DNA of 64,000 bases from Syntrophaceae bacterium UBA4767 (GTDB lineage Bacteria; Desulfobacterota; Syntrophia; Syntrophales; UBA4767), in the NCBI GenBank assembly GCA_002403385.1, contig DHHR01000067.1:7937-71936 (forward strand). Direction: 5' to 3'. Both the position numbers and the translations under genes were made by a program. Of the stretch, positions 33,115 through 52,830 are shown piece by piece (within the stretch, counting starts at the first letter, position 1; every line of letters begins with the position of its first letter). The notes under the pieces are model-generated. The model saw nothing but the letters and a program-made list of their open reading frames with translations, was not told where the DNA came from and made no database searches.

Positions 33115-33188
33115 TGGGAGATCGTTCAACGGCAGGACAACGGACTCTGACTCCGTGAATCGTGGTTCGAATCCACGTCTCCCAGCCA
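33115..33188 (+). tRNA. tRNA-Gln (anticodon CUG)
   Basis: Hand-folded cloverleaf. Acceptor stem TGGGAGA/TCTCCCA, D stem GTTC/GGAC, anticodon stem ACGGA/TCCGT with loop CT-CTG-AC, T arm CGTGG-TTCGAAT-CCACG, discriminator G and an encoded CCA. Confidence 0.9.
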
Positions 33189-33195
33189 ACAGATC

Positions 33196-33225
33196 AAGCT
33201 CCCGGCAGAGGGAGCTTTTTGGTTT
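33196..33225 (+). terminator. intrinsic terminator after tRNA-Gln
   Basis: AGCTCCC-ggcaga-GGGAGCT hairpin followed by TTTTT. Confidence 0.7.
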
Positions 33226-33261: not shown

Positions 33262-34179
33262 CTATGGTTGAGCAGCTCCTTCCGGGTTGGGCGCCGGCGC
33301 AAAGTAGGTGTTTTTTATCCGGTAGAAATTTCTCATGAGAAAAAAAAGCGGTCTCCTGAAGGGGTATTTGTTTTTAGGAAAGAATGTAAGCTTATTGAGC
33401 TTTTCCCATCCTTCGAGCATGTTATTTGCGTCCCATGCAACCGTGTTTTTGTTCTGAGTGAAGTTCCACGTGTTGAATTTATTTGCGAGTTCTTCACTGC
33501 GAAAGACAGCCTCGAAGCGCAATGGCCCCGGCAGAATTAATGGTTTCATGCTGAAGGCTTCACGAACCGCTGTTTCGGCTACCTCCTGCAACCTTTTTCT
33601 GCCGTTTAAGATGTACTGAACACTTTCCTCCCCCGAGGCATAGGCTTCCTTACGTTTGTCCACGATCACGAATTTTGCCCACGGCAGACACTGCAGGGCC
33701 TGCCTGACGGCGATATCCTCCCCGGAGACAAATCCCACCGGCACGCCGCATTCACCGAGGCAGGCGCCATAGATATCCATTTCGCAGGCGAGCTTTCCAT
33801 TTATCCTTATTTCAGAGAAGATTCCATAATGGGTGTGTGGGAAGAAAGCATCCGGCGTTCCCGAGGCGGCATGGATGGCAACATATAAAACCAAATCGTA
33901 CTGCGAAATATTTCCGAATAATGTCGGCCTGATGTAATGCCCGCCGATATAACGCGCCCTGCGGTCCAACTGGTTGATAATACAGTTAAAACCGACGTCA
34001 TGGGTGTCTTTTACCGTCACCTTCTGCGCCCCGCCGTTGAAGGCTCCCTGAATAACGCAGTTGACGTCTTTGGTCAAACATTGCCTGCCGTATTGCCACT
34101 CTGCGGTCCCCGTACGGCATTGGCGCATACGCCAGATGCCGAAACTTCCTTCAATATCAGCAAAAATTCCTACGTGCAT
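33262..34179 (-). CDS. M55 family metallopeptidase (DppA D-aminopeptidase-like)
   Basis: FADIEGSFGI, VKDTHD and YVAIHAASGTP blocks parallel the B. subtilis DppA blocks as I recall them. Start set at ATG 34179 (AGGAG 5 nt upstream), not the ORF-track start at 34257. Confidence 0.75.
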   Translation of the reverse strand: MHVGIFADIEGSFGIWRMRQCRTGTAEWQYGRQCLTKDVNCVIQGAFNGGAQKVTVKDTHDVGFNCIINQLDRRARYIGGHYIRPTLFGNISQYDLVLYVAIHAASGTPDAFFPHTHYGIFSEIRINGKLACEMDIYGACLGECGVPVGFVSGEDIAVRQALQCLPWAKFVIVDKRKEAYASGEESVQYILNGRKRLQEVAETAVREAFSMKPLILPGPLRFEAVFRSEELANKFNTWNFTQNKNTVAWDANNMLEGWEKLNKLTFFPKNKYPFRRPLFFLMRNFYRIKNTYFAPAPNPEGAAQP

Positions 34180-34265
34180 TTCTCTCCTTAATTGTCCTTC
34201 AAAATCAAATTGACGCGCAGTTTGTAGCCAATGAGGCATATTATGGTTAATGCTCAACCAAGGAT

Positions 34266-35360
34266 TTACTTGTCTTTGAAAGGGTCAGCGCCATAATGTT
34301 TTATTTCCTCCTCTTTCCGCATAACCCGTAGGCCGCCGTCGGCAAGAGCCGACATTTCATCTTCTCCGGCAAAAACAAAGACGGGAGAGAGAAATTGGAC
34401 CCACTCCTTGATCCATTCCGTCAACATCTCAGAATTGGCGAGCCCTCCGGTGAGGATGACGCCGTCTATCTGCCCCTTAAGAACAACGCTCATGGCTCCA
34501 ATATCCTTGGCCGCCTGGTAAGCCATAGCTTTGAAGATTAATTTGGCCTTCTCATCTCCCGCACGGATCATGCCTTCAATTTTTTTCACGTCTGTCGTGC
34601 CCAAATAGGCAAAGAGGCCGCCTTGCCCCACAAGTCGGTTCTGAATATTGTTTTTGTCAAACTTTTCCGAAAAGACAAGGTCAAGCAGATCGGTTGTCGG
34701 AAGAGCCCCCGCTCTTTCGGGCGTCAAAGGCCCCTCCCCAAGACCATGTGTGCAATCAATTACCTTGCCGTTTTGATGGGCGCCGATGGTAATGCCGCCG
34801 CCAAGGTGAGCAACGACGAGATTCATTTCCTCATATTTCTTTCCCCATTTCAATGCAAGGCGCCTTGCGGCTATCTTCTGGTTCAATGCATGAAAGGCGC
34901 TCTTGCGCTCTATTTCTGGAATGCCGGAAATCCTGGCAATGGGATGCAATTCATCTGTGCTCGGTGGATCGATGACGATAGCCGGCATGCCGCATCTCCT
35001 TGATATGTTCAAAGACACGACAGGTCCAAGCGCCGAAGGATGTTTTCCGTATCTTCCTTCCAGCAGGTCATGACACATTGCATCATCAATTCTGTAAGCT
35101 CCTGCCGGCGCCGGCTTTCCCAAGCCACCGCGGCTCACAATCATATCGATAGTTTTCAGGTCGATGCCGTTTGCCTTTAAAAAGGCAAAGAGGTCCTTTT
35201 CCCTAAGGGGCAATTGCGCGCGCAAAGAAGGATAAGGGGCAAGGGCCTCGCTGCTGTATCGTATCGTATCCAGAATGGACGGCTTTCCTCCCGTGAACAA
35301 ACCGACCTTCGTCGATGTCGAACCGACATTGATCACAAGCAGGCGATAATTATTATCCAT
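34266..35360 (-). CDS. buk: butyrate (short-chain acyl) kinase
   Basis: 364 aa, ASKHA fold. Motifs LVINVGSTSTKVGLF and VAHLGGGITIGA. Length and motifs fit Buk rather than AckA. Confidence 0.88.
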   Translation of the reverse strand: MDNNYRLLVINVGSTSTKVGLFTGGKPSILDTIRYSSEALAPYPSLRAQLPLREKDLFAFLKANGIDLKTIDMIVSRGGLGKPAPAGAYRIDDAMCHDLLEGRYGKHPSALGPVVSLNISRRCGMPAIVIDPPSTDELHPIARISGIPEIERKSAFHALNQKIAARRLALKWGKKYEEMNLVVAHLGGGITIGAHQNGKVIDCTHGLGEGPLTPERAGALPTTDLLDLVFSEKFDKNNIQNRLVGQGGLFAYLGTTDVKKIEGMIRAGDEKAKLIFKAMAYQAAKDIGAMSVVLKGQIDGVILTGGLANSEMLTEWIKEWVQFLSPVFVFAGEDEMSALADGGLRVMRKEEEIKHYGADPFKDK

Positions 35361-36270
35361 GTTTCATTCCCCTTGCGGATATCAAGGTTGCGATGGCAAT
35401 TTCAACTAAGCGATTTTCATCGGAGATAAAAGGCGGATTCAGCGCCACCGGTTTTGTGGTTCCCATAAGGATGCCCGCAGTTTTCATCTTGCCCCAAAAA
35501 ACAAGAGCCTCAATAAGCGAATAGCCTGTTTCTATGCAGGGAACAAGAAAGATATCTGCGTTGCCGGTCACGACGCTCATGATTCCCTTTCTTTTCGCTG
35601 CGACGCAGCTTACGGCACAGTCCATATCGAGCGGCCCTTCGACGATAGCCTTTCCGAATTGTTTTCTGTCCGCCATCTTGGCAAGGACAGCCGCATCAAC
35701 CGTTGATGGAATGCTTGGATTCACCTGTTCAATGGCAGCAAGAACCGCGACTTTGGGTTCTTTAATCCCAAGTATGTCGGCCAGACCGAGGGCGTGTTCA
35801 AGAATCAGTTGTTTTTCGACAATCCCCGGAGAGTTATTCACCAAAGTATCGGTCACGATAATTAACTTATTGCGTTTCTGCAATTGAACAACGGAGGGAT
35901 AACTTGCCACCTTGTCTTTCAGCAGACCTGTTTTGACATTTAGCGCTGCCTGTATGAAGGTTTTCTGATCTTCCCCTCCTTGCATCAGGATATCCGCTCG
36001 ATCTTCCCTGGCAAGCCTTATCGCCGCCCGAAGCGCCTCACCAGCGCCCCTTGCATTTATGATCTCGTGCTCCATGGATGCCAGGGGACTCTTTTTCAGT
36101 GTGGCTCTAATTGCCTTGCCGTCACCGACCAACAGGGGAATAACGGGCATTTTTGTAGCTGCCTTACAGAGAAGTTCTATCTCTTGCTTGTTTGGTGACG
36201 GAACCGCCAGACGTTTTTTTCCCTCATCCTTTCTCGCCCTTTTAGCAATTCCCGTGAATGTGCCGATCAT
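35353..36270 (-). CDS. ptb: phosphate acyltransferase of the PTA/PTB family (phosphate butyryltransferase-like)
   Basis: 305 aa, about the length of stand-alone phosphate butyryltransferases; family call by overall resemblance. Its stop overlaps the buk start by 8 nt. Confidence 0.8.
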   Translation of the reverse strand: MIGTFTGIAKRARKDEGKKRLAVPSPNKQEIELLCKAATKMPVIPLLVGDGKAIRATLKKSPLASMEHEIINARGAGEALRAAIRLAREDRADILMQGGEDQKTFIQAALNVKTGLLKDKVASYPSVVQLQKRNKLIIVTDTLVNNSPGIVEKQLILEHALGLADILGIKEPKVAVLAAIEQVNPSIPSTVDAAVLAKMADRKQFGKAIVEGPLDMDCAVSCVAAKRKGIMSVVTGNADIFLVPCIETGYSLIEALVFWGKMKTAGILMGTTKPVALNPPFISDENRLVEIAIATLISARGMKHG

Positions 36271-36271
36271 C

Positions 36272-37201
36272 TCAACTCACCGATTTTCCTATTCTGTCGG
36301 CCACAACAACTCCCATGGCAATTTGCGTTATAATAGCATCGCGAAGATCCGATCGCGCGGGGATGCATACTGCTCCCCTGGAAGTCACGGTAAGAGAACA
36401 ACGCTTTACCCCAAGCAGCAGGTCGAGTTTGCAGAGAATGTTTCCCGTGTCAAGGCAGGGAACGAGGAAGATATGGGGTGTTTTCATGAGATCGATTTCA
36501 CTGTAATTGTTTAAATGCCCCCCCATACCCATGAAGATTTCGGAGAGAGACGTGGAATCGATGATTTCGCACTCTCCCATATCGCCAGAAGCAGCAACCT
36601 GTTTGAGCGATTCATAATCATGATAAGAAGACAATGTTTCACTGAACTCCCGTTGGGCGGAGAGTACGGCTATTTGCGGTTTTTTATACCCAAACAGATG
36701 GTACAGAAAGACGGCATTCTTGAGGATTTCCACCTTTGTCTTGAAATCCGGATTAATAGTGACACCCGTGTCTGTGATGGCAACCAAGTGATCGACTTCG
36801 GGCATTTCCCAGAGCGATATGACGCTTACTTTCATGCCGGAGCCCGCTTTCGCTTCGGCCCTAATTGTCGAGCGGTAGATGTAGGATGTGGGTATCTGAC
36901 CTTTGCTTACAATGGACAGCTTTCCCGAAAAGAGCAGGTTGATCCCAAGATCGGAGATGGTTTGCCGGTCGTTTTCGACAATCTTTTCAAATCCACTGAT
37001 GTCGAATTTAATGTTTTTTGCTAGCCGTTCCATCTTTTTTGTATTCCCGATGAGGATCGGTTCGATATACCCCATCTCACAGCTTCTTTTTACGGCAAGC
37101 ATGAACTCTTCATCTTCCGGAGCAAGGACGGCAAGTTTCTTCGGCCCACATTTCTGCGCCAGCTTGGCAATGTCTCTTAACGATCGAACCATTGATTCCA
37201 C
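36272..37201 (-). CDS. second, divergent PTA/PTB-family paralog
   Basis: 309 aa with the same architecture as the downstream ptb, but clearly divergent in sequence. One nucleotide separates the two genes. Confidence 0.7.
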   Translation of the reverse strand: MESMVRSLRDIAKLAQKCGPKKLAVLAPEDEEFMLAVKRSCEMGYIEPILIGNTKKMERLAKNIKFDISGFEKIVENDRQTISDLGINLLFSGKLSIVSKGQIPTSYIYRSTIRAEAKAGSGMKVSVISLWEMPEVDHLVAITDTGVTINPDFKTKVEILKNAVFLYHLFGYKKPQIAVLSAQREFSETLSSYHDYESLKQVAASGDMGECEIIDSTSLSEIFMGMGGHLNNYSEIDLMKTPHIFLVPCLDTGNILCKLDLLLGVKRCSLTVTSRGAVCIPARSDLRDAIITQIAMGVVVADRIGKSVS

Positions 37202-37226
37202 CTTTCGACTACTTTTGCGGATCGGG

Positions 37227-38750
37227 TCAAATCCGGAAAAAATTCAGGCCACCTTTTAAGCGCACCTTGCCTTTTTTACCGATAAACTCTCGTTTTGTCA
37301 TCTCATCGATTGCATCCTTATCCGGTTCGGCTTTTGCCAAAAAGCGGTGGCCGTTGGGGAGTCTTCCGATGATTGTCGCATCTACAGGACGGCCTTCTCT
37401 GTCGTGGAAAATGCTGTAGGTTTCAATCTCTGCATCCCCGGAGGCATCCGACAGAAGTTGCGGCCCTTTTATCTCATCCAGATCCTTCCGGTAGACGTCA
37501 GGAGCGGGGATGTTGTGAGGAGTTTGCCGCCATCTTCCAGAATATATGCCCACAGAGTGCTTGCTGATAAACCAGCTTAGAGCCTGGACCAAACCAATCT
37601 TGTCCTTCTCGCGCCGGAGCAGCTCGACCATTTTGCAGATTGCATGCAGAGCATAATTGTTGCCAGGTCCGCCGAAATAGGGCATGCCTCCTGTGACAGA
37701 GAGAGGCCGCCGGTTGTCGTGTATGCCCAGCATGTCGCGCACCATGCGCGGCGCGCAGGGAAAACAGCTATACAGGTCAAGGTAGTCAATTTTATCGATG
37801 GTTATTCCCGCTTGGTCCAGAGCCATCGCTGCCGCAATCTTGACCGAAGGCGACGAAAAACAATTCACCCGTTCAGATACATGCCAGATATCCATAGCGT
37901 CTCCCGATCCCACAAGATAGACCCATTTTTCTGCGGGAACGCCCAATTCTGACGCGGTCCGCTCACTCGTCAGAAAAAGAGCCGCACCCTGATCCACCTG
38001 CATGATCGAGCACATAAATTTTGTATAGGGGAAGGATACCATTGGATTAGAGCTTGATACGTTGATAATTTCCTCCATCGTTTTTTTATCCCTGAACCAT
38101 GAAAATGGGTTCTCGGCGGCTATGGCGGACAGTCCGGCGCAGAACTCGCCTAATTCCGCGGCGTGGTTTTCGATGGAAAGATTTTTGTGATGCCGAAAGG
38201 CATTTTCGAAGAGGGGATATACGTTGATGGGAAGCGTGAGTCCATATTTCACTTCCAGAGCAGAGGACGGGTCACGGAGTTCCCCTGCCATCCATGGCTT
38301 TTTAGGAGGCAAATCCCACTGCTGAAATATTTTTCGCTTGAGTTTCGCTTCGATTTTTGCAGAGTGAAACGCTTCTCCACCGCAAATCAGGGCAATGCCT
38401 GTCTTCCCTTCAAAAATATTCTTGGCGGCCTGGTTGACAAACCATTGGGGGGCGGTTGCCCCGATCCATGTGTAGGCTTTTTGCCTCGGTGCAATGCCAA
38501 TCCTTGACGATATTTCTGAAAGAGGGTCAGAGTAATGACTCGACATGATATTCACCAGATAAAGCGTGTCCACCTTTTCTGTCAGCTTTTTTGTGCATGA
38601 ATCATCTTGCGCCGCACGAACGGCCGCTTCAATCATGTCCAGGGGGTTTTTGATGTCCACAGGATCGTAAGATCTGTTGACGCTCTGCCCTATGCCAATG
38701 ATCACAGGGCGCTGATGGGAAGAGAAAATAGGCATTTGGTTTTTCCTCAT
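37227..38750 (-). CDS. thiolase-like protein, TLP1/SCP-x-thiolase-related, with an extra C-terminal beta-rich domain
   Basis: Thiolase-fold blocks are present (GGEAF, LYSCFPCAP, GGMPYFGGPGNNYALHAI). The position of the nucleophilic Cys reads IGATAPQ, with no Cys. The start is uncertain: 38750 or 38735 (AGGA upstream). The ORF-track start at 38846 would overlap marR. Confidence 0.7.
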   Translation of the reverse strand: MRKNQMPIFSSHQRPVIIGIGQSVNRSYDPVDIKNPLDMIEAAVRAAQDDSCTKKLTEKVDTLYLVNIMSSHYSDPLSEISSRIGIAPRQKAYTWIGATAPQWFVNQAAKNIFEGKTGIALICGGEAFHSAKIEAKLKRKIFQQWDLPPKKPWMAGELRDPSSALEVKYGLTLPINVYPLFENAFRHHKNLSIENHAAELGEFCAGLSAIAAENPFSWFRDKKTMEEIINVSSSNPMVSFPYTKFMCSIMQVDQGAALFLTSERTASELGVPAEKWVYLVGSGDAMDIWHVSERVNCFSSPSVKIAAAMALDQAGITIDKIDYLDLYSCFPCAPRMVRDMLGIHDNRRPLSVTGGMPYFGGPGNNYALHAICKMVELLRREKDKIGLVQALSWFISKHSVGIYSGRWRQTPHNIPAPDVYRKDLDEIKGPQLLSDASGDAEIETYSIFHDREGRPVDATIIGRLPNGHRFLAKAEPDKDAIDEMTKREFIGKKGKVRLKGGLNFFRI

Positions 38751-38800
38751 GTTGCAATGTTTTTTAATGAAGGTTCTCTGTTTGGGAAAGATGATTTGTC

Positions 38801-39217
38801 TTACGGCAACTCCAGCCGACTCAAATATTCTTGAAATCGCTTCCATTCATCGGGGGCGAAGCGGTTTACAAAATGGCTATTTGTTTGCTCAAACAAGCTT
38901 AAAAAATCCCCTTTATTATTTATGGCTTTAGCAGATGGAAAAATTCGATACATGCGACGATCCCTAGGTTCCGTATGCCGTTCAACCCAGCCATCCCTCT
39001 CGAGTCTATCAAGCAGACCCGTGGCAGTGGGACGATCCAGTTCAGTTTTGTCGGCCAGTTGGCTTGGCAGAAGACCTTCTTCTTCTAAAATTGCGCACAG
39101 CATGAAAAACTGCCCATGTGTCAGCCCGTATTTTGTTATGCCTTCCCGATATCTTCGTCTGATTTTTTGTGAAGCTCGATTAAGCTGAAAACAAACGCAT
39201 CGTTCCAATTCGCTCAT
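38801..39217 (-). CDS. MarR family transcriptional regulator
   Basis: 138 aa with winged-HTH region LTHGQFFMLCAILEEEGLLPSQLADKTELDRPTATGLLDRLERDGWVER. Confidence 0.9.
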   Translation of the reverse strand: MSELERCVCFQLNRASQKIRRRYREGITKYGLTHGQFFMLCAILEEEGLLPSQLADKTELDRPTATGLLDRLERDGWVERHTEPRDRRMYRIFPSAKAINNKGDFLSLFEQTNSHFVNRFAPDEWKRFQEYLSRLELP

Positions 39218-39231
39218 CTATTCATCCTTTT

Positions 39232-40161
39232 CTATCTTTTGCGTATAAGTCCATCTTCTTGCCGTATTACCTTGCCTTCCTGCTCGAGCTTAATCAGGTG
39301 GCTCTCCAGCAATTGGGGGCCAGGGAATAATTGGACAGTAGGTTTAGGGTAAAGTTTGCCGCATAGATCCATGAAGCTTAGAGGACGATCGCCTAGAGTC
39401 TGCAATATGAGCGATTCGAGTTGAAGAATGTGCGCCTTGGTGCGTTCAATCGCCTCACGCGCCATTACGATATTTTCACCATGAGAAGGTAAAATAATGC
39501 GGGCATTTAACTTTGCAAGCCGCTCCAGGCCATTAAGATAACCGATGGCTCCCCCGGAAGACGGCGAATACCATGCCACTACCTTTCCCACCACATCTCC
39601 GGTAAATAATACTCCGCTGTCGGGGTCAAAAAGAGAAACATGGCCGGGGGCATGGCCAGGTGTGTGAATTACATGGAAACGGAATTTACCCATGCACAGG
39701 GTGTCTCCATCCGTCATGGCGTTGGTAGCGTGCGAGGAAGACATAGGACATAGCCCGGCAAAATAATCCAAGACATTGATGTTTTCTAAAGAGGGGTTAC
39801 TTTCAGATGATCCGCGTCTTTTGGCGAGGTTGTAGTCAAAAGTCTGGTTCAGGAGCTGGGGGTCGGCAGCCAGAGGGATTTCAAAGTCATGCAGGTATAT
39901 GCGCGGGGATATCTCTTGCAACAAAAAACCCATCGCCCCCATGTGGTCTGGGTGGGCATGGGAAATCACAATGGTATGGACATCACGAAGGCTAAGACCT
40001 TCATTATTCAAAAAATTTTTCAAGGTGTTGAATTTTTCTTCTTTTCCGCAACCGACGTCAATGAGGATGGCTCCATCTCGATCACGGACAAGGAATACAT
40101 TTGCAGAAGCAGGCCACATGTGACTTTCTTCTCTCATTACTTTTATTTCACCAGATATCAC
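39232..40161 (-). CDS. MBL-fold metallo-hydrolase
   Basis: 309 aa with a GTG start and GGAGG upstream. Motifs ISHAHPDHMG and TPGHAPGH. Carries a C-terminal extension of about 70 aa. Confidence 0.85.
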   Translation of the reverse strand: MISGEIKVMREESHMWPASANVFLVRDRDGAILIDVGCGKEEKFNTLKNFLNNEGLSLRDVHTIVISHAHPDHMGAMGFLLQEISPRIYLHDFEIPLAADPQLLNQTFDYNLAKRRGSSESNPSLENINVLDYFAGLCPMSSSHATNAMTDGDTLCMGKFRFHVIHTPGHAPGHVSLFDPDSGVLFTGDVVGKVVAWYSPSSGGAIGYLNGLERLAKLNARIILPSHGENIVMAREAIERTKAHILQLESLILQTLGDRPLSFMDLCGKLYPKPTVQLFPGPQLLESHLIKLEQEGKVIRQEDGLIRKR

Positions 40162-40352
40162 GCTACCTCCAGGCTTTTAGTGACTTTTCAGTTTTTGCCT
40201 TTTGTTCCATTTACTTAAATCAGATGAGGCTCTAAAAGTAAGCTATCGGGCGCGAAATATAAACTATACTAGATGCGGATGCAACAGTAAAAGTATGTAC
40301 GCACCCGATAGGAAATAAATACAAAACGCTGCCATTAAACGTTTACATATTC

Positions 40353-42845
40353 TTATCCCAACCCCTGGACGGTTCTCTGGATGATATTGTCCTGAGTTTT
40401 GCGGCTGATGTCCACAAAATGAGCGCTGTAACCAGCTACACGAACAATCACCTCTGAGTATTTCTCTGGATCCTTTTGCGCAGCACGGAGCGTCGCATCA
40501 TCAATCATGTTAAACTGAACATGATCATTCCCGAGATCAGCCCATGTATGCATGTATGCTTTCCAAAGCTGATAACCTTTCTCTCCGGCTAACTGTGTTG
40601 GAGATAAGCGTTGATTTAACAAAAACGCCCGCCCGTCACTGACATGATCAATTTTTCCGCATGATTTCAATACAGCCGTTGGGCCCTTTTTATCCAGACC
40701 CGGCCCTGGAGAGATACCGCCATCATACAAAGCGTCGCCAAGCCTTCTGCCATTGGGTAGCGCCCCTACAACGTTGGCATAATGTATATTGCCGCTCACA
40801 TTCTCGGGAAGAGCAGGCCAGTTATTCCCTGAAGTGCACTTAATAACCCGGGAATGGCGCGCTGCTTCTCTTAAACATCGAAGCATAATCTGATCCACAT
40901 AGTTATCATCATTACCCCACTTCGGCGCATTGCGAACAAAATCCATCCGCATTTCTTCGAAACCTTCCCAATTAGCCTCCAGAGCATCCATCAACTGAGC
41001 CATCGTGTATTTCTTATCATCAAAAACCAACTTCTTAACCGCAGCAAGACTATCTGCATTCTCCACCCAGGTAAAGAAAGTAACCCAAGCATTGCCGCGC
41101 TCACCCTCAGGACTTATAGCATCAATCCCTGATTCTACGGAACGTTCATATATCGCTGATAAAAACGGGCGACCATTGTTCTTGGGATCAAGCATTCTTC
41201 CCATATTTACTGTTCGGGTCAAAATATTCATAATCCATTCCATCTGCTTGACCCATGCACTAAAAAGCTGTTCAAAATCAGCAAACTTTCGCGCATCTCC
41301 TGTCTTTGGCCCCATCTGCATATTGACTACACGGTCATATCCATTAGAAAGAGCATATTCAATCATCTTGGCGGTGTTAGCCGTAGCATGAGCCATACGC
41401 ATAGCCAGACACCCATGCTTAGTAGTAGGACAAGGAGACATACAGGCCTGATGAACCCAGGTTCTTGCTTCTTCAACGGGATGACCATGCCAGTTCATGG
41501 AATTGGCAATCAGAACGGGATCATTTCGCATAGAAGGGTACCCCAAACCTTGCCTGATACATTCGAAACACTCCCGCATGACTTCATCTTTCACCTTGGG
41601 GTGCCATCTAAAACCAAATGTCGGATTAGATACTCTTACCAACCTCGCAGCCTGCATATAAGCTACAGTTATATCATTACATGCATCAGAGCCATCTGGA
41701 TGAACTCCTCCCATAGTCCAAACCCAGGTTCCGGTAATGCCCTGAAGTCCCTCTCTTCCCAAACGTGGAACAAAAATCCCAATTTCATAGGCCCTTATTA
41801 GTTGCTCTCCAATTAGATCCAAAGCGTCTTCTTTGGTTAACCGTTTTTCAACATTTACATCTTTATCATAATAAGACCCATGAACATAATCCGGGCGATG
41901 CGGCCAGGCCAATTCTATTCCTTCTATACGTGAAAGCACGTGCACAAAATGGTCAAACTGCAAAGATTCTTGAAGATTCCGTGGTGGCATAGCGGGAACA
42001 CGTTCACAGGTCTCGGCAATACGCAAAAGTTCCTCTTTTCTTTTCGTATCCATTTCAAAATGCTCTGCAATGATTCGTGCAAGTCGAGAATATCTTTGTG
42101 CATAACGAATTGCAGCATCAAGGATGAGCTGCATGCCTTCCCAATTTCGCATCTTCTCATAAAGAGGAAAGAGTTCTGGTCCGGAAGGCCCCTGAAGCTT
42201 TTCATCTGTTTCATCCAGATGCTTTTCAATTTCGGCGATTATCGCTTTAAATCCTTTAAATATGAAATTAAAATCTTTGCTGGCATAACCACCAAACGAG
42301 GTAGGAACGCCCCAACCTATGGCGCCACTGACAAATTTCACTGCATCTTCAGGATCAATAGCGCGAACCAGGTGATCGAGCGCAGTCCGTCCAGCCCAAT
42401 AATCATTCAATTCAGCCAAAAGCTTTAATGATTCATCTTCTGGCTCAGGAATGAGACCTTGGGTATTATAGACTTCCTCATTAAACATACTCGCCCATTC
42501 ATGTGCATGAAGCAAAGTATGTGGCGCGTTAGAAACACATCCTACTATTTGAGATTGATCCGTAATAAATATGGAGATATTGTCTAATACATTTGCTAAT
42601 GCCTTTGCTTTTCTTAGCATGGTTGAATCATGCTCACTGGCCTTCCACCCTTCTGTGAAGAGAACTGATCTTTCTAGGTCAACTTTTATTCCTGGTGCAT
42701 ACAAACCACCAATAGCTCCTTTCTTCCATACCGCTTTTCTTAAATAATCCAATCTCTTCGATCTGGTTTTTTCCGCCATCCACCACCACTCACGATTTTC
42801 TTTGAGCTCTTCTAACGATTTATCTTTCGATGCGGTTACGGACAT
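40353..42845 (-). CDS. glycyl radical enzyme, X-succinate synthase (fumarate-adding, BssA/AssA-like) clade candidate
   Basis: 830 aa from ATG 42845 (GGAGGG 7 nt upstream). Glycyl motif VRVAGYSAHFVD (Gly codon 40431-40433). Cys loop HQACMSPCP (Cys codon 41442-41444). Additional blocks APKWGNDDNY, ANWEGFEEMRMDF, DKKGPTAVLKS and LLNQRLSP. Confidence 0.85.
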   Translation of the reverse strand: MSVTASKDKSLEELKENREWWWMAEKTRSKRLDYLRKAVWKKGAIGGLYAPGIKVDLERSVLFTEGWKASEHDSTMLRKAKALANVLDNISIFITDQSQIVGCVSNAPHTLLHAHEWASMFNEEVYNTQGLIPEPEDESLKLLAELNDYWAGRTALDHLVRAIDPEDAVKFVSGAIGWGVPTSFGGYASKDFNFIFKGFKAIIAEIEKHLDETDEKLQGPSGPELFPLYEKMRNWEGMQLILDAAIRYAQRYSRLARIIAEHFEMDTKRKEELLRIAETCERVPAMPPRNLQESLQFDHFVHVLSRIEGIELAWPHRPDYVHGSYYDKDVNVEKRLTKEDALDLIGEQLIRAYEIGIFVPRLGREGLQGITGTWVWTMGGVHPDGSDACNDITVAYMQAARLVRVSNPTFGFRWHPKVKDEVMRECFECIRQGLGYPSMRNDPVLIANSMNWHGHPVEEARTWVHQACMSPCPTTKHGCLAMRMAHATANTAKMIEYALSNGYDRVVNMQMGPKTGDARKFADFEQLFSAWVKQMEWIMNILTRTVNMGRMLDPKNNGRPFLSAIYERSVESGIDAISPEGERGNAWVTFFTWVENADSLAAVKKLVFDDKKYTMAQLMDALEANWEGFEEMRMDFVRNAPKWGNDDNYVDQIMLRCLREAARHSRVIKCTSGNNWPALPENVSGNIHYANVVGALPNGRRLGDALYDGGISPGPGLDKKGPTAVLKSCGKIDHVSDGRAFLLNQRLSPTQLAGEKGYQLWKAYMHTWADLGNDHVQFNMIDDATLRAAQKDPEKYSEVIVRVAGYSAHFVDISRKTQDNIIQRTVQGLG

Positions 42846-42884
42846 AATAACACCCTCCTTCCTTAAGTTCATTCCAATCTTGTT

Positions 42885-42902
42885 TTGTTAATTGAATAAC
42901 AA
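42885..42902. promoter_or_regulatory. 18-bp palindrome TTGTTAATTGAATAACAA, candidate operator (MarR-type?)
   Basis: 7 of 9 positions are self-complementary. Located 40-57 nt upstream of the GRE start codon. Confidence 0.3.
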
Positions 42903-43120
42903 GGAACAATTCACAGTGTTTTTGTTTCTATCCGCCTCCTATTTTGCAAATAAGCTTGCCCAAAGATGATTTCTCTATAAAAATAGTATTCCGCTAGGTC
43001 ACGCAACCATATGGCAAGACTTCAGGTAAATAACTAGCACACTAATTATTTAAACGCAAACTATTTTTTACCAGTTAGATGTAAAAATATGATAACTGCC
43101 TAGGGCGAACAATGAATTTT

Positions 43121-43217
43121 GACAAAATCGTAAAAAGTCAAAATTCGCGGATTTTGTCATGGTGAGCACTTCGGCCGGCTCAGGGTGACAATTGGGACTT
43201 TTTACGAGTGCATCAAT
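43121..43217. repeat. intergenic repeat, copy B
   Basis: A 47-nt module, GACAAAATCGTAAAAAGTCAAAATTCGCGGATTTTGTCATGGTGAGC, differs at 1 nt from 57742-57788. A second module, CTCAGGGTGACAATTGGGACtTTTTACGAGtgCATCAAT, matches 57839-57877. Confidence 0.8.
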
Positions 43218-44679: not shown

Positions 44680-45840
44680 GTGAGAATACACGAATTTCAG
44701 GCCAAGGAGCTTTTGCGGCGCTATGGTGTGCCTGTGCCTTTGGGTGAGATGGCGCAAACCCCTGAGTCGGTTCGTAAGATCGCTTTGCAACTGGGAACGA
44801 AAGTGGTAATCAAAGCGCAAATCCACGCGGGGGGGCGGGGTAAGGCAGGAGGGATCCTTTTTGCGGAAACGCCTGAGGATGCATACCGGAAAGCGAAAAA
44901 GCTCATAGGCAGGACTCTGGTTACGGCGCAGACAGGACCTGAAGGGAAGCGTGTCCAAAAGGTCATGGTCGAAAGGCTGACGCCTGTCCGGAAAGAAATG
45001 TACCTCGCTTTGATCATAAGCCGCGCGCGGGGCATGGAATGTCCTGTTTTCATGGCTTCCAGCATAGGGGGGATGGAGATAGAGAAAATAGCCACAAAAG
45101 CTCCGGAAGAGCTGGCAACGGTTGCCGTTCACCCTGCTGTGGGATTTAGCCCTTTTCAAGGGAGAAAACTTGCCGGCGGACTGGGTTTGAAGGATTCTTT
45201 GAGAGAGCAACTGACTGATATTGTCAAAAACATATACGATTTTTTCGTTCAAAACGATGCGTTGCTCGTGGAAATCAATCCCCTGGGAATCGATGATCAG
45301 GAACGGCTTGTTGCTTTGGATGCGAAAATCCAGTTCGACGAAGACGCTCTTTTTCGCCATCCGAAACTAAAGGAACTTCAGGACGTGACACAAGTGGATC
45401 CTTTGGAGTGGGAGTCCCTTGCTGCGGGGTTTAGATATATTGTCCTGGATGGCGACGTGGGATGCATTATCAATGGGGCGGGACTCGCAATGGCAACGAT
45501 GGACTTGATTAAACTGGCCGGAGGGAAGCCGGCGAATTTTCTGGATGTGGGAGGGGGGGCATCTCCCGGGCAGATAGCACAGGCGTTTCGTATCCTGGCT
45601 TCACATCCGAATGTCAAGGTTATATTGATCAATGTCTTTGGAGGGATTCTTCGCTGTGATTGGGTGGCAGCGGGGTTGTGCGAAGCGGTCCCAAAAATGA
45701 GAAGAGATATACCTGTGGTTATCCGTCTGCAAGGGACCAACAAGGAAGAAGGCCGTCGCCTTCTCAAGGAGGCGGACTTTCATTTTGAAACGGCGGAAGG
45801 TCTTTTCGAGGCGGTGCAAAAGGCTGTATCTTTAACTTGA
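44680..45840 (+). CDS. sucC: succinate--CoA ligase (ADP-forming) beta subunit
   Basis: 386 aa with a GTG start. N-terminus MRIHEFQAKELL and an ATP-grasp domain. Confidence 0.95.
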   Translation: MRIHEFQAKELLRRYGVPVPLGEMAQTPESVRKIALQLGTKVVIKAQIHAGGRGKAGGILFAETPEDAYRKAKKLIGRTLVTAQTGPEGKRVQKVMVERLTPVRKEMYLALIISRARGMECPVFMASSIGGMEIEKIATKAPEELATVAVHPAVGFSPFQGRKLAGGLGLKDSLREQLTDIVKNIYDFFVQNDALLVEINPLGIDDQERLVALDAKIQFDEDALFRHPKLKELQDVTQVDPLEWESLAAGFRYIVLDGDVGCIINGAGLAMATMDLIKLAGGKPANFLDVGGGASPGQIAQAFRILASHPNVKVILINVFGGILRCDWVAAGLCEAVPKMRRDIPVVIRLQGTNKEEGRRLLKEADFHFETAEGLFEAVQKAVSLT

Positions 45841-45872
45841 AACAATGAAAAATACGAAAGAATGACTTGAAA

Positions 45873-46760
45873 ATGGCCATACTTTTTGATAAGAACTCCC
45901 GAGTCGTCTCCCAGGGCATTACAGGGGAAACAGGGCGCTTCCATACCCGTGAAGCCATCAAGTTTGGAACCAGGATTGTTGCCGGCGTGGCGGTGGGGAA
46001 AGGCGAAACGTTTTTTGACGGGATTCCTGTCTATGATCGGGTGGTTGATGCCGTAAAGCGACATGGGACTAATGCTTCGGGGATATATGTCCCCCCAGCC
46101 TCTGCGATGGACGCAATTATTGAGCAGATTGAAGCGGGGATTTCCTTAATCGTATGTGTGACGGAAGGTATTCCCCTTCATGATATGGTGAAGGTCAAAC
46201 AGGCGCTGAAAGGTTCGGCGTCTCGGATGATCGGCCCGAATTGTCCGGGCATCACCACCCCTGGAGACGGTAAAATTGGCTTTATGCCTAACTTTATTCA
46301 TAAAAAAGGCCATGTGGGTGTGGTTTCCAAAAGCGGAACGCTCACCTATGAGATTATCTGGCAGCTGACCCAGATGGGCATCGGTCAATCGACCTCGGTG
46401 GGAATTGGCGGCGATCCCATTGTGGGTTCCGATTTCGTTGATATATTGGCCCTTTTTGAACAGGATTCCCAGACGAAACTGATCGTGCTCATCGGGGAAA
46501 TCGGCGGCGATGCGGAGCATGAAGCGGCCGATTTTATTAAGGAAAAGATGAAAAAGCCGGTGGTTGCCTTTGTGGCGGGTCGAACGTCTCCTCCGGGAAA
46601 AAGGATGGGCCATGCCGGTGCGATCATCGGCGGGGCCAGAGAAACGGCGCAGGAGAAGGAAAAAGCATTGAAAAGGGCGGGTGCGACCATTGCGGAAAAT
46701 CCTGTTGAGATTGGTGTCGTGGTCAAGGAAATCCTGGCTGGGGCGTATACCCGTTCATAA
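45873..46760 (+). CDS. sucD: succinate--CoA ligase alpha subunit
   Basis: GITGETGRFH, SKSGTLTYE and MGHAGAII (phosphohistidine loop) motifs. ATG 45873 is preferred over the TTG at 45867. Confidence 0.95.
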   Translation: MAILFDKNSRVVSQGITGETGRFHTREAIKFGTRIVAGVAVGKGETFFDGIPVYDRVVDAVKRHGTNASGIYVPPASAMDAIIEQIEAGISLIVCVTEGIPLHDMVKVKQALKGSASRMIGPNCPGITTPGDGKIGFMPNFIHKKGHVGVVSKSGTLTYEIIWQLTQMGIGQSTSVGIGGDPIVGSDFVDILALFEQDSQTKLIVLIGEIGGDAEHEAADFIKEKMKKPVVAFVAGRTSPPGKRMGHAGAIIGGARETAQEKEKALKRAGATIAENPVEIGVVVKEILAGAYTRS

Positions 46761-46861
46761 CGATAGTTGTTTTGATAAGGATTCAATATTTTAGAGGAAG
46801 GAGGATGTAAGCGGAGGTGTAAGGCCGGCGGAAAGCTGGTTGGAGCACACCGTGGAGGGTT

Positions 46862-49045
46862 ATGTCGAAAGATCAAAATCAAAACAAAGAACCGCAATGT
46901 GCAAATGTAGATGTGGGTTTGTTTGCCGAATTTTCCGGTGTGACATACAAACAGTGGCGTGATGCTGCCGAACAGACCCTGAAAGGGGCGCCTTTTGAGA
47001 AGAAACTCGTTACCAAAACATATGAGGGAATAGACCTTCAGCCTATCTACTGGCAGGAGGATATCGAAACTTTATCCCATACCGCTTCCTTTCCGGGGAA
47101 AATTCCCTATCTCCGCCATCGCGACATACTAGGTTACCTGTTGGAACCATGGCGGGTAAGCCAGGAGTTGGTGGATGCAACGCCTGCGTTGCTGAATCAA
47201 GCAGCCCGCAATGATTTGGAAAGAGGGCAGACGGAATTGAATGTTTTGTTGGACCAGGCCGCTCTGGCGGGTATGGATGCCGATGCGGCGAAGACACAGC
47301 AGGTAGGCAAGGGCGGCGTTTCCATATCGAGTAGTGAAGATATGGCAAAGATGCTGGAAGATATCGCCATCGATAAGGCGCCGATTTACCTTCAGGCCGG
47401 CGCTGTGGCGCTGCCGGCGCTGGCGCTGTTGATCTCCGTGACAAAGGATCGCAAAATTCCGCTTGACAAGCTAAGCGGGTGTGTCGGCATGGACCCGCTT
47501 GCCGTTTTAGCCGATAAGGGCGCCTTACCCTATTCTTTGCAGGGGGCCTACGATATGATGGCGGCCTTGACCCTGTGGGCGAAAAAAAACGTTCCCGCAT
47601 TGCAAACAATTGTGGTTCAGACCCACCCTTACCATAATGGCGGCGGTAATTCCGTTCAGGAGCTGGCCTACGCCATGGCGACGGCGGTGGAATACGTAAG
47701 CGAAATGCTCTCCAGGGGCATCTCCATTGATGAGATAACTCCACGGATTCGATTTTCCTTCTCTGTGGGTTCGAAATTTTTTATGGAAGTTGCCAAATTG
47801 CGGGCGGCCCGGCTGCTTTGGACACAGATCGTGCAAGCTTTTGGAGGGCAAGAAGAAGCGCAGAAGATGCACATGCATGTTTGTACCTCCCTCTGGACAA
47901 AAACCGTCTATGATCCCTATGTGAACATGTTAAGGACAACAACGGAGGCTTTTTCGGGAATCATGGGAGGCGCCAACAGCATTCACGTGGGAGCTTTCGA
48001 TCAGGTCATCCGGCCGCCGGATGAATTCTCCCGGCGTATTGCCAGAAATATTCAAATTATTTTGGAAAAGGAATCCAAGCTAGGCGTTCCCATCGATCAG
48101 TCAGGAGGTTCATGGTACATTGAAAAGCTGACCGATGAGGTGGCGAAAAAAGCATGGTCTGTCTTCCAGGAGCTGGAGGCGAAGGGCGGTATGTCCAAAG
48201 CATTGAAGGAAGGCATTCCCCAGGCACAAATCGCCAAGGTGGCGGCGGAGCGAAAAACAAACATCGGCCATCGTCGCGACATTTTTGTCGGAACGAATAT
48301 GTATCCCAACTTGGGAGAAACTCCTCTGCCTCCCCGGGCGGTGGATCATGAGGCTGTTCAGGAAGAACAGTCTGAGCAGTTGGCTCGTTTCCGAGCTTTG
48401 CGGGATGAAAAAAAGCTAAAGGCGGCATTGGGGATGCTTGCCGCGGCCAAGAAAACCGCGGGCGAAGAACTGGTTGCTGCTGCCATTGCGGCAGCCCAAG
48501 CCGGGGCCACACTGGGCGATATTGCCGAAAAGCTTAGGGATGATGCTGTAACACCGAAAATTCAGGCTATTCCATGTGAACGAGGAGCCGAAATTTTCGA
48601 GGCCCTGCGGAAAGCGGCAGAGCAATATCAGACAAAAACAGGCTCCCGGCCGAAGGTGTTTTTGGCCAACATGGGGCCCATCCCCCAGCATAAAGCCCGG
48701 GCGGATTTTTCCACAGGTTTTTTTGAAACGGGCGGATTTGAAGTGATCAAGAACGACGGCTTTCCAACCGTGGAAGATGCGGCAAAAGCCGCTCTTGAAT
48801 CGAAAGCATCGCTGGTTGTGATTTGCTCGACGGACGATACCTATCCGGAATTGGTCCCACCGCTTGCAAAACGGATAAAGGAAGCGAGTCCGAATGTAAC
48901 GATTATTCTTGCCGGTTATCCGGTGGATCATGTGGATGCCTTCAAGCAGGCGGGCGTTGATGACTTTATCCACATGAGGGCAAATTGTTATGAGATGCTT
49001 CGCAAGTTACAGGAGAAGAAAGGAGTGGCGTATAATGGCAAATAA
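46862..49045 (+). CDS. mutA: methylmalonyl-CoA mutase family, non-catalytic beta-type subunit (lacks the B12 His ligand motif)
   Basis: 727 aa with the mutase barrel ([15 protein letters not shown]) and a C-terminal flavodoxin-like domain. That domain reads [14 protein letters not shown] where the alpha subunit has DxHxxG. Confidence 0.85.
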
Positions 49046-51224
49046 ACCGGATTTCACTGCGATTGAATATGGAAAAGGGAATGTCCCGACTCTTTCGCTT
49101 GACGCCTGGCGCAAGCAGGCTGAAAAAGAAGCGGGAAGGACGCTGGAAGCGCTGTATTGGAAAACCGACGAGCAGATCGCCGTCAAACCTCTTTATATCA
49201 GAGAGGATTTGGATAAGGAAGAACACATCGGTTTTACGGCAGGGATTGAACCTTTCCTGCGGGGGCCGTATCCCACGATGTATGTGACAAGGCCATGGAC
49301 GGTTCGCCAGTACGCCGGTTTTTCGACGGCGGAGGAAAGCAATGCCTTTTATCGCCGCAATTTGGCGGCCGGTCAGAAGGGGCTTTCCATCGCTTTCGAT
49401 CTGGCAACCCATCGTGGCTATGATTCCGATAACCCCCGTGTCGTTGGCGATGTTGGAAAGGCGGGGGTGGCCATCGATTCGCTGTTGGACATGAAGATCC
49501 TCTTTGACGGCATTCCCCTCGATAAAATGTCCGTTTCCATGACCATGAACGGCGCCGTGCTCCCTGTGATGGCCTTTTACATTGTAGCCGCGGAAGAGCA
49601 GGGGGTCAAATTTCCCCAGCTCAACGGCACCATTCAAAATGACATCCTCAAAGAATACATGGTGCGCAATACTTACATCTATCCACCTTCGCCTTCCATG
49701 CGGATCATCGCCGATATTTTTGAGTTCACGTCCAAAAACATGCCGAAATATAACAATATCAGCATTTCCGGTTACCATATGGAGGAGGCGGGAGCGACAT
49801 CGGACCTCGAGCTGGCCTATACGCTGGCGGACGGATGGGAATATGTGAGGGCGGGAATTAAGGCGGGGATCGATATTGACGCCTTCGCTCCGAGGCTGTC
49901 CTTCTTTTTTGCCGTCGGCATGAATTATTTCATGGAAGTGGCCAAATTGCGGGCTGCCCGGCTGCTCTGGGCGAAGATCATCAAGCAGTTTAATCCCAAG
50001 GATTCCAGATCCCTGGCGCTGCGCACCCATTGCCAGACGTCGGGCTGGAGCCTAACGGAGCAGGATCCCTACAACAATGTGGCAAGAACCTGCGTGGAGG
50101 CCATGGCGGCAGCCATGGGACATACCCAATCGCTGCATACCAATTCTTTTGACGAAGCGTGTACATTGCCGACGGATTTTTCGGCGCGTATTTCCCGTAA
50201 TACCCAGCTCTATCTGCAGGATGAAACGGGCATGTGCGCCGTGGTGGATCCCTGGGGCGGGTCGTATTATGTGGAAGCGCTGACAGGCGCCCTCGCCCGC
50301 AGGGCGTGGCAGCATATACAGGAGGTCGAGTCGCTGGGCGGAATGGCCAAGGCCATCGAAACGGGCTTGCCTAAGATGCGTATAGAGGAAGCTGCCGCGC
50401 GTCGTCAGGCCCATATTGATTCCGGCAAGGAAGCCATCATCGGGGTCAACAAGTATCGTCTGGCCAAAGAAGAACCCCTGGAAATTTTGGAAATCGATAA
50501 CACGGCTGTTCGCACGGCTCAGATTAATCGCCTGGCAAAACTGCGCAAGGAACGGGACGAAGCGAAGGTGCGGGCAGCCCTCAATGCGATTACCAAGGCG
50601 GCGGAAACAGGCAAGGGAAATCTGTTGGCCCTTTCCATTGAAGCGGCCCGGGCGCGGGCGTCGTTGGGAGAAATTTCAGATGCCATGGAAAAGGTGTTCG
50701 GGCGCCATAAGGCCGTTATCCGATCCATCTCCGGTGTGTACAGCGCCGAATTCGGCGAGGAGGAAGACGTGGCGAAGGTCCGTAAGATGACGGATGAATT
50801 CGAAAAACATGAAGGACGCCGTCCCCGGATTATGATCGCGAAAATGGGACAGGATGGACACGACCGCGGCGCGAAAGTCATTGCCACGGCATTCGCGGAT
50901 ATGGGATTTGATGTGGATATCGGGCCCCTTTTCCAAACACCGGAAGAAACGGCTCAGCAGGCGGTGGAAAATGATGTCCATGTGATCGGCATGAGTTCTC
51001 TGGCCGCCGGCCACAAGACCCTCTTGCCAAAACTGGTGGAGGAACTAAAGCGACTCGGTCGGGAGGACATCCTGATTGTAGCAGGCGGTGTTATCCCCGC
51101 GCAGGATTATGAATATCTCAAAACAAATGGAGCGGCTGCGATTTTCGGTCCGGGAACGGTTATTCCTGTTGCCGCTCAGAAGGTTCTCGAGGAGATCAAC
51201 CGCCGCTTGACGGAAACACATTAA
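49035..51224 (+). CDS. mutB: methylmalonyl-CoA mutase catalytic alpha subunit
   Basis: 729 aa from ATG 49035 (AGGAG 9 nt upstream), overlapping mutA by 11 nt. Motifs [13 protein letters not shown] and [15 protein letters not shown]. The B12 motif is [12 protein letters not shown]. Confidence 0.95.
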
Positions 51225-52361: not shown

Positions 52362-52384
52362 TATTAATTCGAGAGGAATGTATC

Positions 52385-52789: not shown

Positions 52790-52830
52790 CGGTTTGACAT
52801 TCCGTTCAAACAAATGAAGGAGAAACTTAA

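Follow-up and report, generated by a model that had tools for sequence, protein, structure and literature searches.

Described systems and the cluster

Alkylsuccinate and (1-methylalkyl)succinate synthases (Ass and MASS), described as MasD of Azoarcus sp. strain HxN1 and as AssA of Desulfatibacillum, Desulfoglaeba and Smithella, are glycyl radical enzymes (GRE) of fumarate-addition metabolism; the HxN1 enzyme is an alpha-beta-gamma-delta complex for which MasB and MasE are needed for activity (PMC12358834). A gene for an alpha subunit of this type is found on contig DHHR01000067.1 of Syntrophaceae bacterium UBA4767, as the first of eight minus-strand open reading frames (ORFs) arranged head to tail at positions 33262-42872 of the 64-kb stretch of DNA analysed here (the window). 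The order is GRE, MBL-fold metallo-hydrolase, MarR-family regulator, TLP1-type thiolase-like protein, two phosphotransacylases (Ptb1 and Ptb2), butyrate (acyl) kinase (Buk) and M55 (DppA-like) zinc hydrolase. Family assignments were made from Pfam and NCBIfam profile searches, which reproduced every assignment of a preliminary description of the cluster, along with its eight genes, their order and their strand. Our best explanation, with a probability of about 0.55, is that the cluster represents a mosaic operon in a Smithella-like (Syntrophales) syntroph, made up of three separately inherited units which are probably co-regulated: the GRE, an MBL-MarR-TLP1-M55 module, and a Ptb1-Ptb2-Buk cassette. 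One single new pathway leading from the GRE to ATP is not demonstrated, and metabolic coupling of the units is unproven.

Compared with MASS/Ass, the window gene is alike in encoding a full-length alpha subunit with Gly and Cys loops, and unlike in that gamma (MasC/AssC), beta (MasB) and delta (MasE) subunits and an activase are absent from the 64-kb window, and in being embedded in an unrelated MarR-controlled module rather than in an ass/mas operon. The Ptb-Buk system of the Clostridium acetobutylicum type is matched here by a kinase scoring above the equivalog cut-off, an adjoining PTA_PTB transferase and a translationally coupled overlap. Unlike that system, the window has two transferases, both below the Ptb equivalog cut-offs, and the trio is a Syntrophales-specific cassette normally found by acyl-CoA dehydrogenases; we regard Ptb/Buk here as a two-transferase form of a known kind of module. 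ADP-forming acyl-CoA synthetase (ACD) catalyses the same net reaction as Ptb and Buk together (acyl-CoA + ADP + Pi <-> acid + CoA + ATP) and in other lineages stands at the corresponding position of the module, but it belongs to another protein family and none is encoded in the window cluster.

The bbs operon (BbsEF, G, H, CD, AB) offers a conceptual parallel, with a fumarate-addition GRE, CoA-dependent processing and an unusual thiolase-fold enzyme acting last, and an SDR-ECH-TLP1 arrangement in some TLP1 relatives (L021-23; loci retrieved for comparison are cited by L numbers) also recalls it. The cluster lacks, however, a CoA-transferase, acyl-CoA dehydrogenase, hydratase and 3-hydroxyacyl-CoA dehydrogenase, and its TLP1 lacks the catalytic cysteine used by BbsB-type thiolases (the BbsB match is 26 bits, against a cut-off of 750 bits). 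MsTLP1 of Mycobacterium smegmatis, a monomeric protein, has no thiolase activity and no established function (PMC3406046, from 2012), and the library searched assigned none to the TLP1 family either. The window protein shares with it the thiolase fold, the TLP1 C-terminal domain, the absence of the nucleophilic cysteine and the YSCF fingerprint, but is distantly related (203 bits) and has not kept the NGG motif. Whereas MsTLP1 is without described gene partners, the subfamily in the window is consistently paired with M55 and neighboured by ACD or Ptb/Buk. The M55 protein belongs to the same fold family as DppA of B. subtilis; unlike dppA, its gene is not in a dipeptide-transport operon and is coupled to TLP1. 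The library searched contained no paper that describes a cluster joining Ass to Ptb/Buk, TLP1 or M55.

Three separable units

Genome and metagenome collections were scanned for TLP1, and neighbouring genes were counted by tblastn; the genome-collection scan, which used exact 8-mers, returned 12 loci. The nearest named relative is Ca. Smithella cisternae M82, whose module products are 75-87% identical to those of the window. Its module locus on scaffold 45 reads MBL-MarR-TLP1-M55, with TLP1 and M55 51 nt apart and a divergent nrdD upstream, and contains neither Ptb/Buk nor AssA. The published analysis of the M82 genome places assA on scaffolds 109 and 226 and lists one buk and two ptb genes, none of which lies within the 16.7 kb examined around the module.

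Canonical AssA loci (L007, L069-75, L087) encode a 54-aa BssC_TutF protein, a MasB-like protein of ~122 aa and a MasE-like protein of ~73 aa. Most have one or two activases nearby; the Smithella loci (L069-72) have none within 10 kb. Module genes were absent from the flanks (6-10 kb) of the AssA loci L007, L069-72 and L074/75 and of an orphan assA (L008). Locus L073, which adjoins the same MFS-FKBP-ECH junction as L087, may be an exception, with the module just beyond its contig end. Some 25 or more distinct TLP1 contexts, in turn, are without an AssA-type GRE.

TLP1 and M55 are directly adjacent in the Desulfobacterales contexts L010-13, L019, L020, L025, L026, L056 and L083-86, with 20-90 nt from the end of TLP1 to the start of M55, as also in M82 (L009). 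This spacer is occupied by Ptb1-Ptb2-Buk in the window and in L080/L081 (TLP1 93% identical). Elsewhere in Syntrophales (L076-79) the trio, or Ptb1-Ptb2 only in L079, stands alone by acyl-CoA dehydrogenases, controlled by regulators of the LysR or sigma-54 type. Across Syntrophales, Ptb1 orthologs share 60-79% identity, and Ptb2 was always the next gene in the contexts fetched, although Ptb1 and Ptb2 of the window are only 20-23% identical to one another and fall into two separate orthologous groups. By these contexts Ptb1-Ptb2-Buk is a self-contained, independent Syntrophales cassette, and the conserved pairing of a divergent with a canonical Ptb suggests a heteromeric or two-specificity transacylase.

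The main reading in the preliminary description had been one route running from the radical enzyme to ATP. As a conserved pathway this is not supported, given a module without Ptb/Buk or AssA in M82, canonical AssA loci without module genes, and a trio that is independent of both. Comparison of the neighbourhood across genomes shows that TLP1-M55 and Ptb1-Ptb2-Buk each recur, but that the eight genes split into three units (GRE; MBL-MarR-TLP1-M55; Ptb1-Ptb2-Buk) which, judging from their distribution, are inherited separately.

Under the mosaic reading, the ancestral unit would be a MarR-controlled MBL-MarR-TLP1-M55 operon in which the cysteine-less TLP1, always paired with M55 in this subfamily, would most likely handle an unusual acyl-CoA in a beta-oxidation-like setting. 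Ptb1-Ptb2-Buk would have been inserted in the short TLP1-M55 spacer. Ptb would interconvert acyl-CoA + Pi and acyl-phosphate + CoA, and Buk acyl-phosphate + ADP and acid + ATP; both substrate and direction are predicted, the ATP-yielding one being favoured for an energy-limited syntroph, and ACD would provide the same net step in other lineages of the module. An intact orphan assA/masD would have come to sit between the upstream block of the module (see below) and MBL. If active, the GRE would presumably have to borrow beta, gamma and delta subunits and an activase from an ass operon elsewhere in the genome, and it would not be an obligatory metabolic partner of the module.

An intact alkylsuccinate synthase alpha subunit

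The GRE gene (40353..42845, minus strand; PF02901 4e-121, PF01228 3e-28) is predicted to encode an intact AssA/MasD-type alkylsuccinate synthase alpha (catalytic) subunit. Its product matches MasD of strain HxN1 (PDB 9o8u) over its full length with 1,368 bits, compared with 502 bits for benzylsuccinate synthase (BssA) and at most 329 bits for eliminases, and shows 72-85% identity to AssA encoded in canonical operons, and likewise to proteins of Desulfoglaeba, Desulfatibacillum, Smithella and Desulfothermus. The earlier label "X-succinate-synthase-like" was thus correct and can be sharpened to AssA/MasD. The Gly loop RVAGYSAHF is intact and invariant in the AssA alignment, the Cys loop QACMSPCPTTKHG is intact and conserved in the AssA clade, and the full-length ORF retains 470-plus invariant positions. 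The same sequence was found on contigs from several samples (six examined).

Accessory subunits and an activase were looked for by sensitive tblastn with 16 queries overall, among them nine proteins from L007, L069 and L074 for the subunits and five activases, and by a listing of small ORFs. MasB, MasC and MasE homologs were found neither beside the GRE nor in the 64-kb window, the activase queries gave no significant match in the window, and no Radical_SAM domain was present in 40 Pfam-scanned ORFs, i.e. most but not all of its large ORFs. The GRE is an orphan alpha subunit within the 64-kb window, since no subunit or activase homolog lies beside it or elsewhere in this stretch. By sequence it is an ordinary AssA/MasD in an unusual setting: it stands alone, accessory subunits are missing from its vicinity, and the regulatory region that precedes it belongs to another operon.

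The lower GC content of the gene, noted in the preliminary description, is real (0.445 overall; 0.39 at third codon positions, GC3, compared with 0.48-0.62 in most neighbours). It is weak evidence of a separate origin. As proof of horizontal transfer GC3 was downgraded, because the values of MarR, dnaA and dnaN are just as low.

Desulfothermus naphthae (L008; GCA_054657475.1, 10001-12514) has a further orphan AssA, which shares 77% identity with the GRE, lacks small subunits within 10 kb and is followed by genes for a TetR regulator and an RND efflux system. AssA-like GREs were also encountered in metagenome-assembled genomes of Spirochaetota, at three or four per contig (P0106, P0114, P0117 and P0118 on a 121-kb contig; P0036, P0081 and P0086 on a 162-kb contig), each 69-72% identical to the window GRE. 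Both the phylum and the copy number are unexpected for alkylsuccinate synthases.

The module proteins and the ATP-coupled step

TLP1 (37227..38735, minus strand; PF18313 7e-15) has the TLP1 C-terminal domain, at 55 bits against a 26-bit cut-off, and its match to MsTLP1 (PDB 4egv) spans residues 2-480. The earlier suggestion that it is catalytically atypical was well founded: as in MsTLP1, the nucleophilic cysteine is missing, IGATAPQ taking the place of the CxS motif and aligning to MsTLP1 IGGQSPQ, where Gly102 stands for Cys89. The YSCF fingerprint (in place of NEAF) is invariant in the TLP1 alignment, GGP(GNNY) corresponds to GGL(GNNY) of MsTLP1, and the NGG position reads ALSWF. We consider TLP1 the core enzyme of the module and M55 its conserved partner.

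M55 (33262..34179, minus strand) matches PF04951 (7e-54, 183 bits). It is not an equivalog of the D-aminopeptidase DppA, with 79 bits against the 430-bit cut-off of NF058634, and matches B. subtilis DppA (1hi9) with 57 bits. In this alignment the zinc-ligand positions of DppA (one Asp, one Glu, two His and another Glu) are all retained. The MBL-fold protein (39232..40161, minus strand; PF00753 2e-30) is 75% identical to the product of the first gene of the M82 module and has a visible HAHPDH metal motif (HxHxDH). Its best solved relative, 2zo4, is without assigned function, and its similarity to thioesterases such as PqsE, or to glyoxalase II, is marginal. The MarR regulator (38801..39217, minus strand; PF01047 1.6e-14) is 87% identical to the M82 copy, and a MarR gene lies upstream of TLP1 in L009, L010, L012, L013, L019, L020, L024-26, L058, L080 and L081.

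The commonest neighbour of TLP1 is ACD, which lies within 6 kb in about ten distinct contexts, either as CoA_binding/Succ_CoA_lig and ATP-grasp_5 subunits or as a fused 712-aa protein. Gene order is MarR-ACD-ACD-ACD-TLP1-M55-ECH in L013/L020, and MBL-ACD-MarR-TLP1-Ptb1-Ptb2-Buk-M55 in L080, where the fused 712-aa ACD lies between MBL and MarR (L080 1-2273). Both solutions thus coexist in L080/L081, which carry ACD as well as Ptb-Ptb-Buk, whereas the window has no ACD gene. In L056, ACD subunits flank Ptb1-Ptb2-Buk, divergent from ACD-TLP1-M55. In other TLP1 relatives the gene order is SDR-ECH-TLP1 (L021-23) or AMP-ligase-TLP1 (L016); ECH/HCDH genes often lie close by.

In the window cassette, Buk (34266..35360, minus strand) scores well above both relevant cut-offs (TIGR02707, 440 bits vs 289; NF002834, 470 bits vs 222). 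Ptb2, a phosphate acyl/butyryl-transferase (35353..36270, minus strand; PF01515 8.3e-26), and Ptb1, its divergent paralog (36272..37192, minus strand; PF01515 2.8e-14), both exceed the PF01515 gathering score and are phosphotransacylases by family, with 225 and 133 bits, respectively, against the Ptb equivalog TIGR02706 (cut-off 410.5 bits). The occurrence of ACD or Ptb/Buk beside TLP1 in independent lineages supports a link of TLP1 with an ATP-coupled acyl-CoA/acid step, for which the supplying enzyme is interchangeable. A tie of this sort had been anticipated in the preliminary description, and is strengthened by ACD in about ten contexts and by Ptb-Ptb-Buk at two other loci.

A conserved upstream block and the regulation of the cluster

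When the spacer upstream of MBL in M82 was compared by blastn with the 3.07 kb of the window reaching from the stop codon of the M50/CBS protease gene to the start of MBL, a single significant match was obtained (95 nt, 77%, E=1.7e-14). This conserved noncoding block, a putative promoter/operator at 43027-43119 (minus strand), lies upstream of the GRE here but upstream of MBL in M82, at a similar distance from the first start codon in both (~185 nt and ~190 nt, respectively). It is conserved about as well as the shared coding genes (78-83% identical DNA), occurs once in the window and, among 87 loci (0.95 Mb), was found only in the window organism and in M82 (L009). A 24-bp near-palindrome, AAATAATTAGTGTGCTAGTTATTT, is located in the block at 43028-43051, and 18/24 of its positions are self-complementary. 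MarR dimers bind such near-palindromes, and the palindrome may be an operator bound by MarR. No convincing sigma-70 hexamer pair was apparent in the block by eye, and the promoter scan returned none.

The 191-nt spacer between GRE and MBL (40162..40352, minus strand) has no alignable homology with the MBL-upstream region of M82, and a consensus scan of it returned no canonical intrinsic terminator. The position of the GRE gene between the regulatory region of the module and MBL suggests promoter capture, and the GRE is probably transcribed from the MarR-type promoter of the module. The one conserved block, together with the lack of a canonical terminator in the spacer, suggests co-transcription of GRE and module. 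The leader of the GRE folds no better than shuffled sequence (z = -0.19). Further upstream, a 27-nt inverted repeat (78% complementary, 44-nt spacer) was noted at 43119-43216, right after the stop codon of the M50/CBS protease gene; it may be the terminator of this gene, parting it from the GRE unit.

Intergenic distances were largely as first described: 14 nt between MBL and MarR and 1 nt between Ptb1 and Ptb2 as well as the 191-nt spacer, an 8-nt overlap of Ptb2 and Buk, and 86 nt between Buk and M55, the latter with an ATG for M55 at 34179 (AAGGAG ribosome-binding site; fitting homologs of 305 aa). The gap between TLP1 and Ptb1, given as 25 nt, is 25-34 nt depending on the choice of start codon, and that between MarR and TLP1 is 65 nt instead of ~50 nt. 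The latter value follows from the TLP1 start at 38735, which homologs support, as they do the starts of GRE at 42845, Ptb1 at 37192 and M55 at 34179; the longest TLP1 ORF (to 38846), which would overlap MarR, was rejected as an artefact. For the GRE, 42845 is the most likely start rather than 42872 or 42902, because of a good ribosome-binding site (GGAGGG) and the 830-aa form present in the protein collection.

The module near an ass operon in Desulfobacterales

Two Desulfobacterales loci, L083 and L087, overlap with 100% identity over 5,169 nt and belong to one contig (JGI Ga0376531_000571, 34,690 bp). The order is a PFL2-type GRE, TLP1, M55 and BtrH_N/DUF4872, then, on the opposite strand, TetR, ACD-alpha, ACD-beta and an MFS transporter, followed by FKBP, ECH, TPR, DUF4037, epimerase, DUF4125, carboxyltransferase, activase, AssC and AssA. 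Ahead of the GRE-TLP1-M55 module, a thiolase, a FadB-like protein, a B12-binding subunit, an NMO-like protein, another ECH and MeaB are encoded, giving this contig the look of an alkane-degradation supercluster. The L083/L087 junction is shared by L012 and L073.

The GRE located directly upstream of (MarR-)TLP1-M55 in these bacteria is a 797-aa protein (L010 6606-8999; L012 6423-8816; L025; L065; L083 7159-9552). No NCBIfam cut-off is reached by this protein, and among solved structures B12-independent glycerol dehydratase matches it best (400 bits). Its identification as an X-succinate synthase was considered and rejected, glycerol dehydratase and HypD being its best matches and its identity to AssA only 30-32%. 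No activase was found within the fetched flanks of the gene. The same module is therefore seen beside two classes of GRE, and beside nrdD in M82.

Alternative readings

Several observations weigh against the mosaic explanation, or against parts of it. The nearest relative with the Ptb insertion, L080/L081 (TLP1 93% identical), is cut inside MBL, the first 86 nt of L080 encoding the MBL C-terminus, so that the stretch upstream of MBL is off the contig. MarR (GC3 0.40), dnaA and dnaN are as low in GC3 as the GRE. At 40243-40311, the spacer between GRE and MBL forms a 12-bp stem that closes a loop of 46 nt and precedes a U-rich stretch (z = -1.68); it also has one promoter-like site at 40291-40263, so that co-transcription of GRE and module is no more than plausible on sequence grounds. 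The event that distinguishes the window from M82 may have been a gain here or a loss in M82, and the unusual acyl-CoA assigned to the module is suggested by gene context. Finally, a complete ass operon and the TLP1-M55 pair are ~15 kb apart in Desulfobacterales, where a different GRE gene immediately precedes TLP1; this second, distant lineage argues for more than chance association between module and ass.

The last point bears on an integrated route, in which the GRE would add a hydrocarbon or other substrate to fumarate and the CoA ester would be processed by TLP1, MBL and M55, with Buk and Ptb either running backwards to activate the substituted succinate, which would take only one ATP, or converting a short acyl-CoA product to ATP. 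We consider this route unlikely, although it would account for the co-directional and tightly spaced genes, for the absence of a canonical terminator after the GRE, and for the position of the GRE downstream of the conserved regulatory block. The Desulfobacterales contig, with TLP1-M55-ACD ~15 kb from genes for an activase, AssC and AssA, and with MeaB, a B12-binding subunit, carboxyltransferase and beta-oxidation genes, is also in its favour, as are the divergent sucCD-mcm-meaB-epimerase-carboxyltransferase operon beside the cluster in the window and the fact that M82 and the named relatives among the hits degrade alkanes or carry assA. Against it stand the different scaffolds of module and assA in M82, the canonical AssA loci without module genes within 6-10 kb, and the roughly 25 or more TLP1 contexts without an AssA-type GRE. 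The acyl-CoA dehydrogenase, hydratase and 3-hydroxyacyl-CoA dehydrogenase that a bbs-like route needs are not encoded in the cluster, essential accessory subunits of the GRE are missing in cis, and the GRE by the Desulfobacterales module is of another class (PFL2/dehydratase-like).

The converse possibility is that the units are neighbours by chance, the GRE having its own promoter and being regulated with distant ass genes, and the MBL-to-M55 operon starting within the spacer. The promoter-like hexamer pair and the stem-loop of the 191-nt spacer would fit this, as would the distinct GC3 of the GRE, the D. naphthae orphan AssA beside unrelated TetR-RND genes, and the lack of linkage in M82. 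However, the sole noncoding match to the module promoter region of M82 is upstream of the GRE and not in the spacer, and the stem-loop, with its 46-nt loop and borderline z score, is not a canonical terminator. The promoter-like site is weak evidence because 25 such sites were found across the scanned region where 16.8 are expected. Chance proximity of this kind is judged improbable. The suggestion in the preliminary description that GRE and MBL-to-M55 operon are independent comes closer to the evidence as far as inheritance is concerned; for regulation it is not clearly right, in view of the upstream block and of the second lineage with the module near ass.

More speculative and more doubtful is the idea that MarR-TLP1-M55 and its ATP step (ACD or Ptb1-Ptb2-Buk) constitute an undescribed accessory branch of anaerobic fumarate-addition (alkane) metabolism. 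The cysteine-less TLP1 would then catalyse a non-Claisen C-C reaction of a CoA ester derived from an alkylsuccinate; the decarboxylation of a (2-methylalkyl)malonyl-CoA and the cleavage of a branched 3-oxoacyl-CoA are candidates. Kinase and transacylase would spend one ATP in activating the substituted succinate, or harvest one, and AssA would have been wired to the MarR promoter. Smithella has also been proposed to dismutate propionate by a six-carbon route yielding butyrate, a proposal cited in PMC5606693. A role of TLP1 and Ptb/Buk in this process has a low probability, since the module is found in Desulfobacterales and TLP1 has no catalytic cysteine.

That the GRE is a silent or decaying paralog, left over from recombination and without a role for want of partners, is very improbable: the missing accessory subunits and activase in the 64 kb and the atypical GC3 would agree with it, but the full-length ORF has retained all conserved loops and 470-plus invariant positions, the identical sequence occurs on contigs from several samples behind a good ribosome-binding site, and multiple alpha subunits with an incomplete accessory set are often seen in operons (L007, L073), which makes sharing of subunits in trans plausible.

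Genomic context

The remainder of the 64-kb window is filled by core chromosomal genes, including dnaA-dnaN-gyrBA-parAB, pyrBC and recO, with ilvBNCD downstream of the cluster and the M50/CBS protease gene upstream. At 16221-18941, dnaA (GC 0.37, GC3 0.33) and dnaN (GC 0.41) are far richer in AT than the window mean (GC 0.48), gyrB and gyrA. Divergent from the cluster and one gene away from the GRE, an operon on the plus strand (44680-54384) comprises sucCD, mcm (two subunits), meaB, a glyoxalase-type epimerase and a carboxyltransferase. For Smithella M82 and Desulfatibacillum, methylmalonyl-CoA mutase and carboxyltransferase have been proposed in the literature to act in the skeleton rearrangement and decarboxylation that follow the activation of alkanes. 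The rest of the operon could serve in the regeneration of fumarate or, equally, in housekeeping propionate metabolism.

A tRNA-Gln(CTG) gene (33115..33188, plus strand; ARAGORN and Rfam), convergent with M55, marks the downstream boundary of the cluster. It has its own terminator-like hairpin at 33196-33217, and in a strain variant (L003) the gene caller placed an ORF with a CMD domain after it, close to the contig end. A genomic island integrated at this tRNA was considered and rejected: no att-like repeat of the tRNA-Gln 3' end was present in the window, no direct or inverted repeats were found flanking the GRE, and Pfam scans of the cluster and flanking genes revealed no integrase. Between 32.6 and 44.7 kb, Rfam at a permissive threshold returned the tRNA as the only structured RNA.

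Significance

Methanogenic biodegradation of oil is driven by syntrophs such as Smithella that degrade alkanes anaerobically, and the steps that follow fumarate addition, as well as the energy balance of the pathway, have been assigned only by analogy. If the coupling of the units described here is only positional, the cluster would be an ordinary mosaic of accessory genes. Promoter capture, if real, would have placed a paralog of the radical enzyme under a new small-molecule sensor. Apart from the GRE, the comparison defines a conserved module of TLP1, M55 and ACD or Ptb/Buk, usually with MarR, which gives the TLP1 family its first genomic context and suggests that Syntrophales and Desulfobacterales have an acyl-CoA process coupled to ATP. 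Should the module prove to be an accessory branch of fumarate-addition metabolism, this would provide a first function for the TLP1 family and would account for a step that has no assigned enzyme in the alkane pathway of energy-limited syntrophs.

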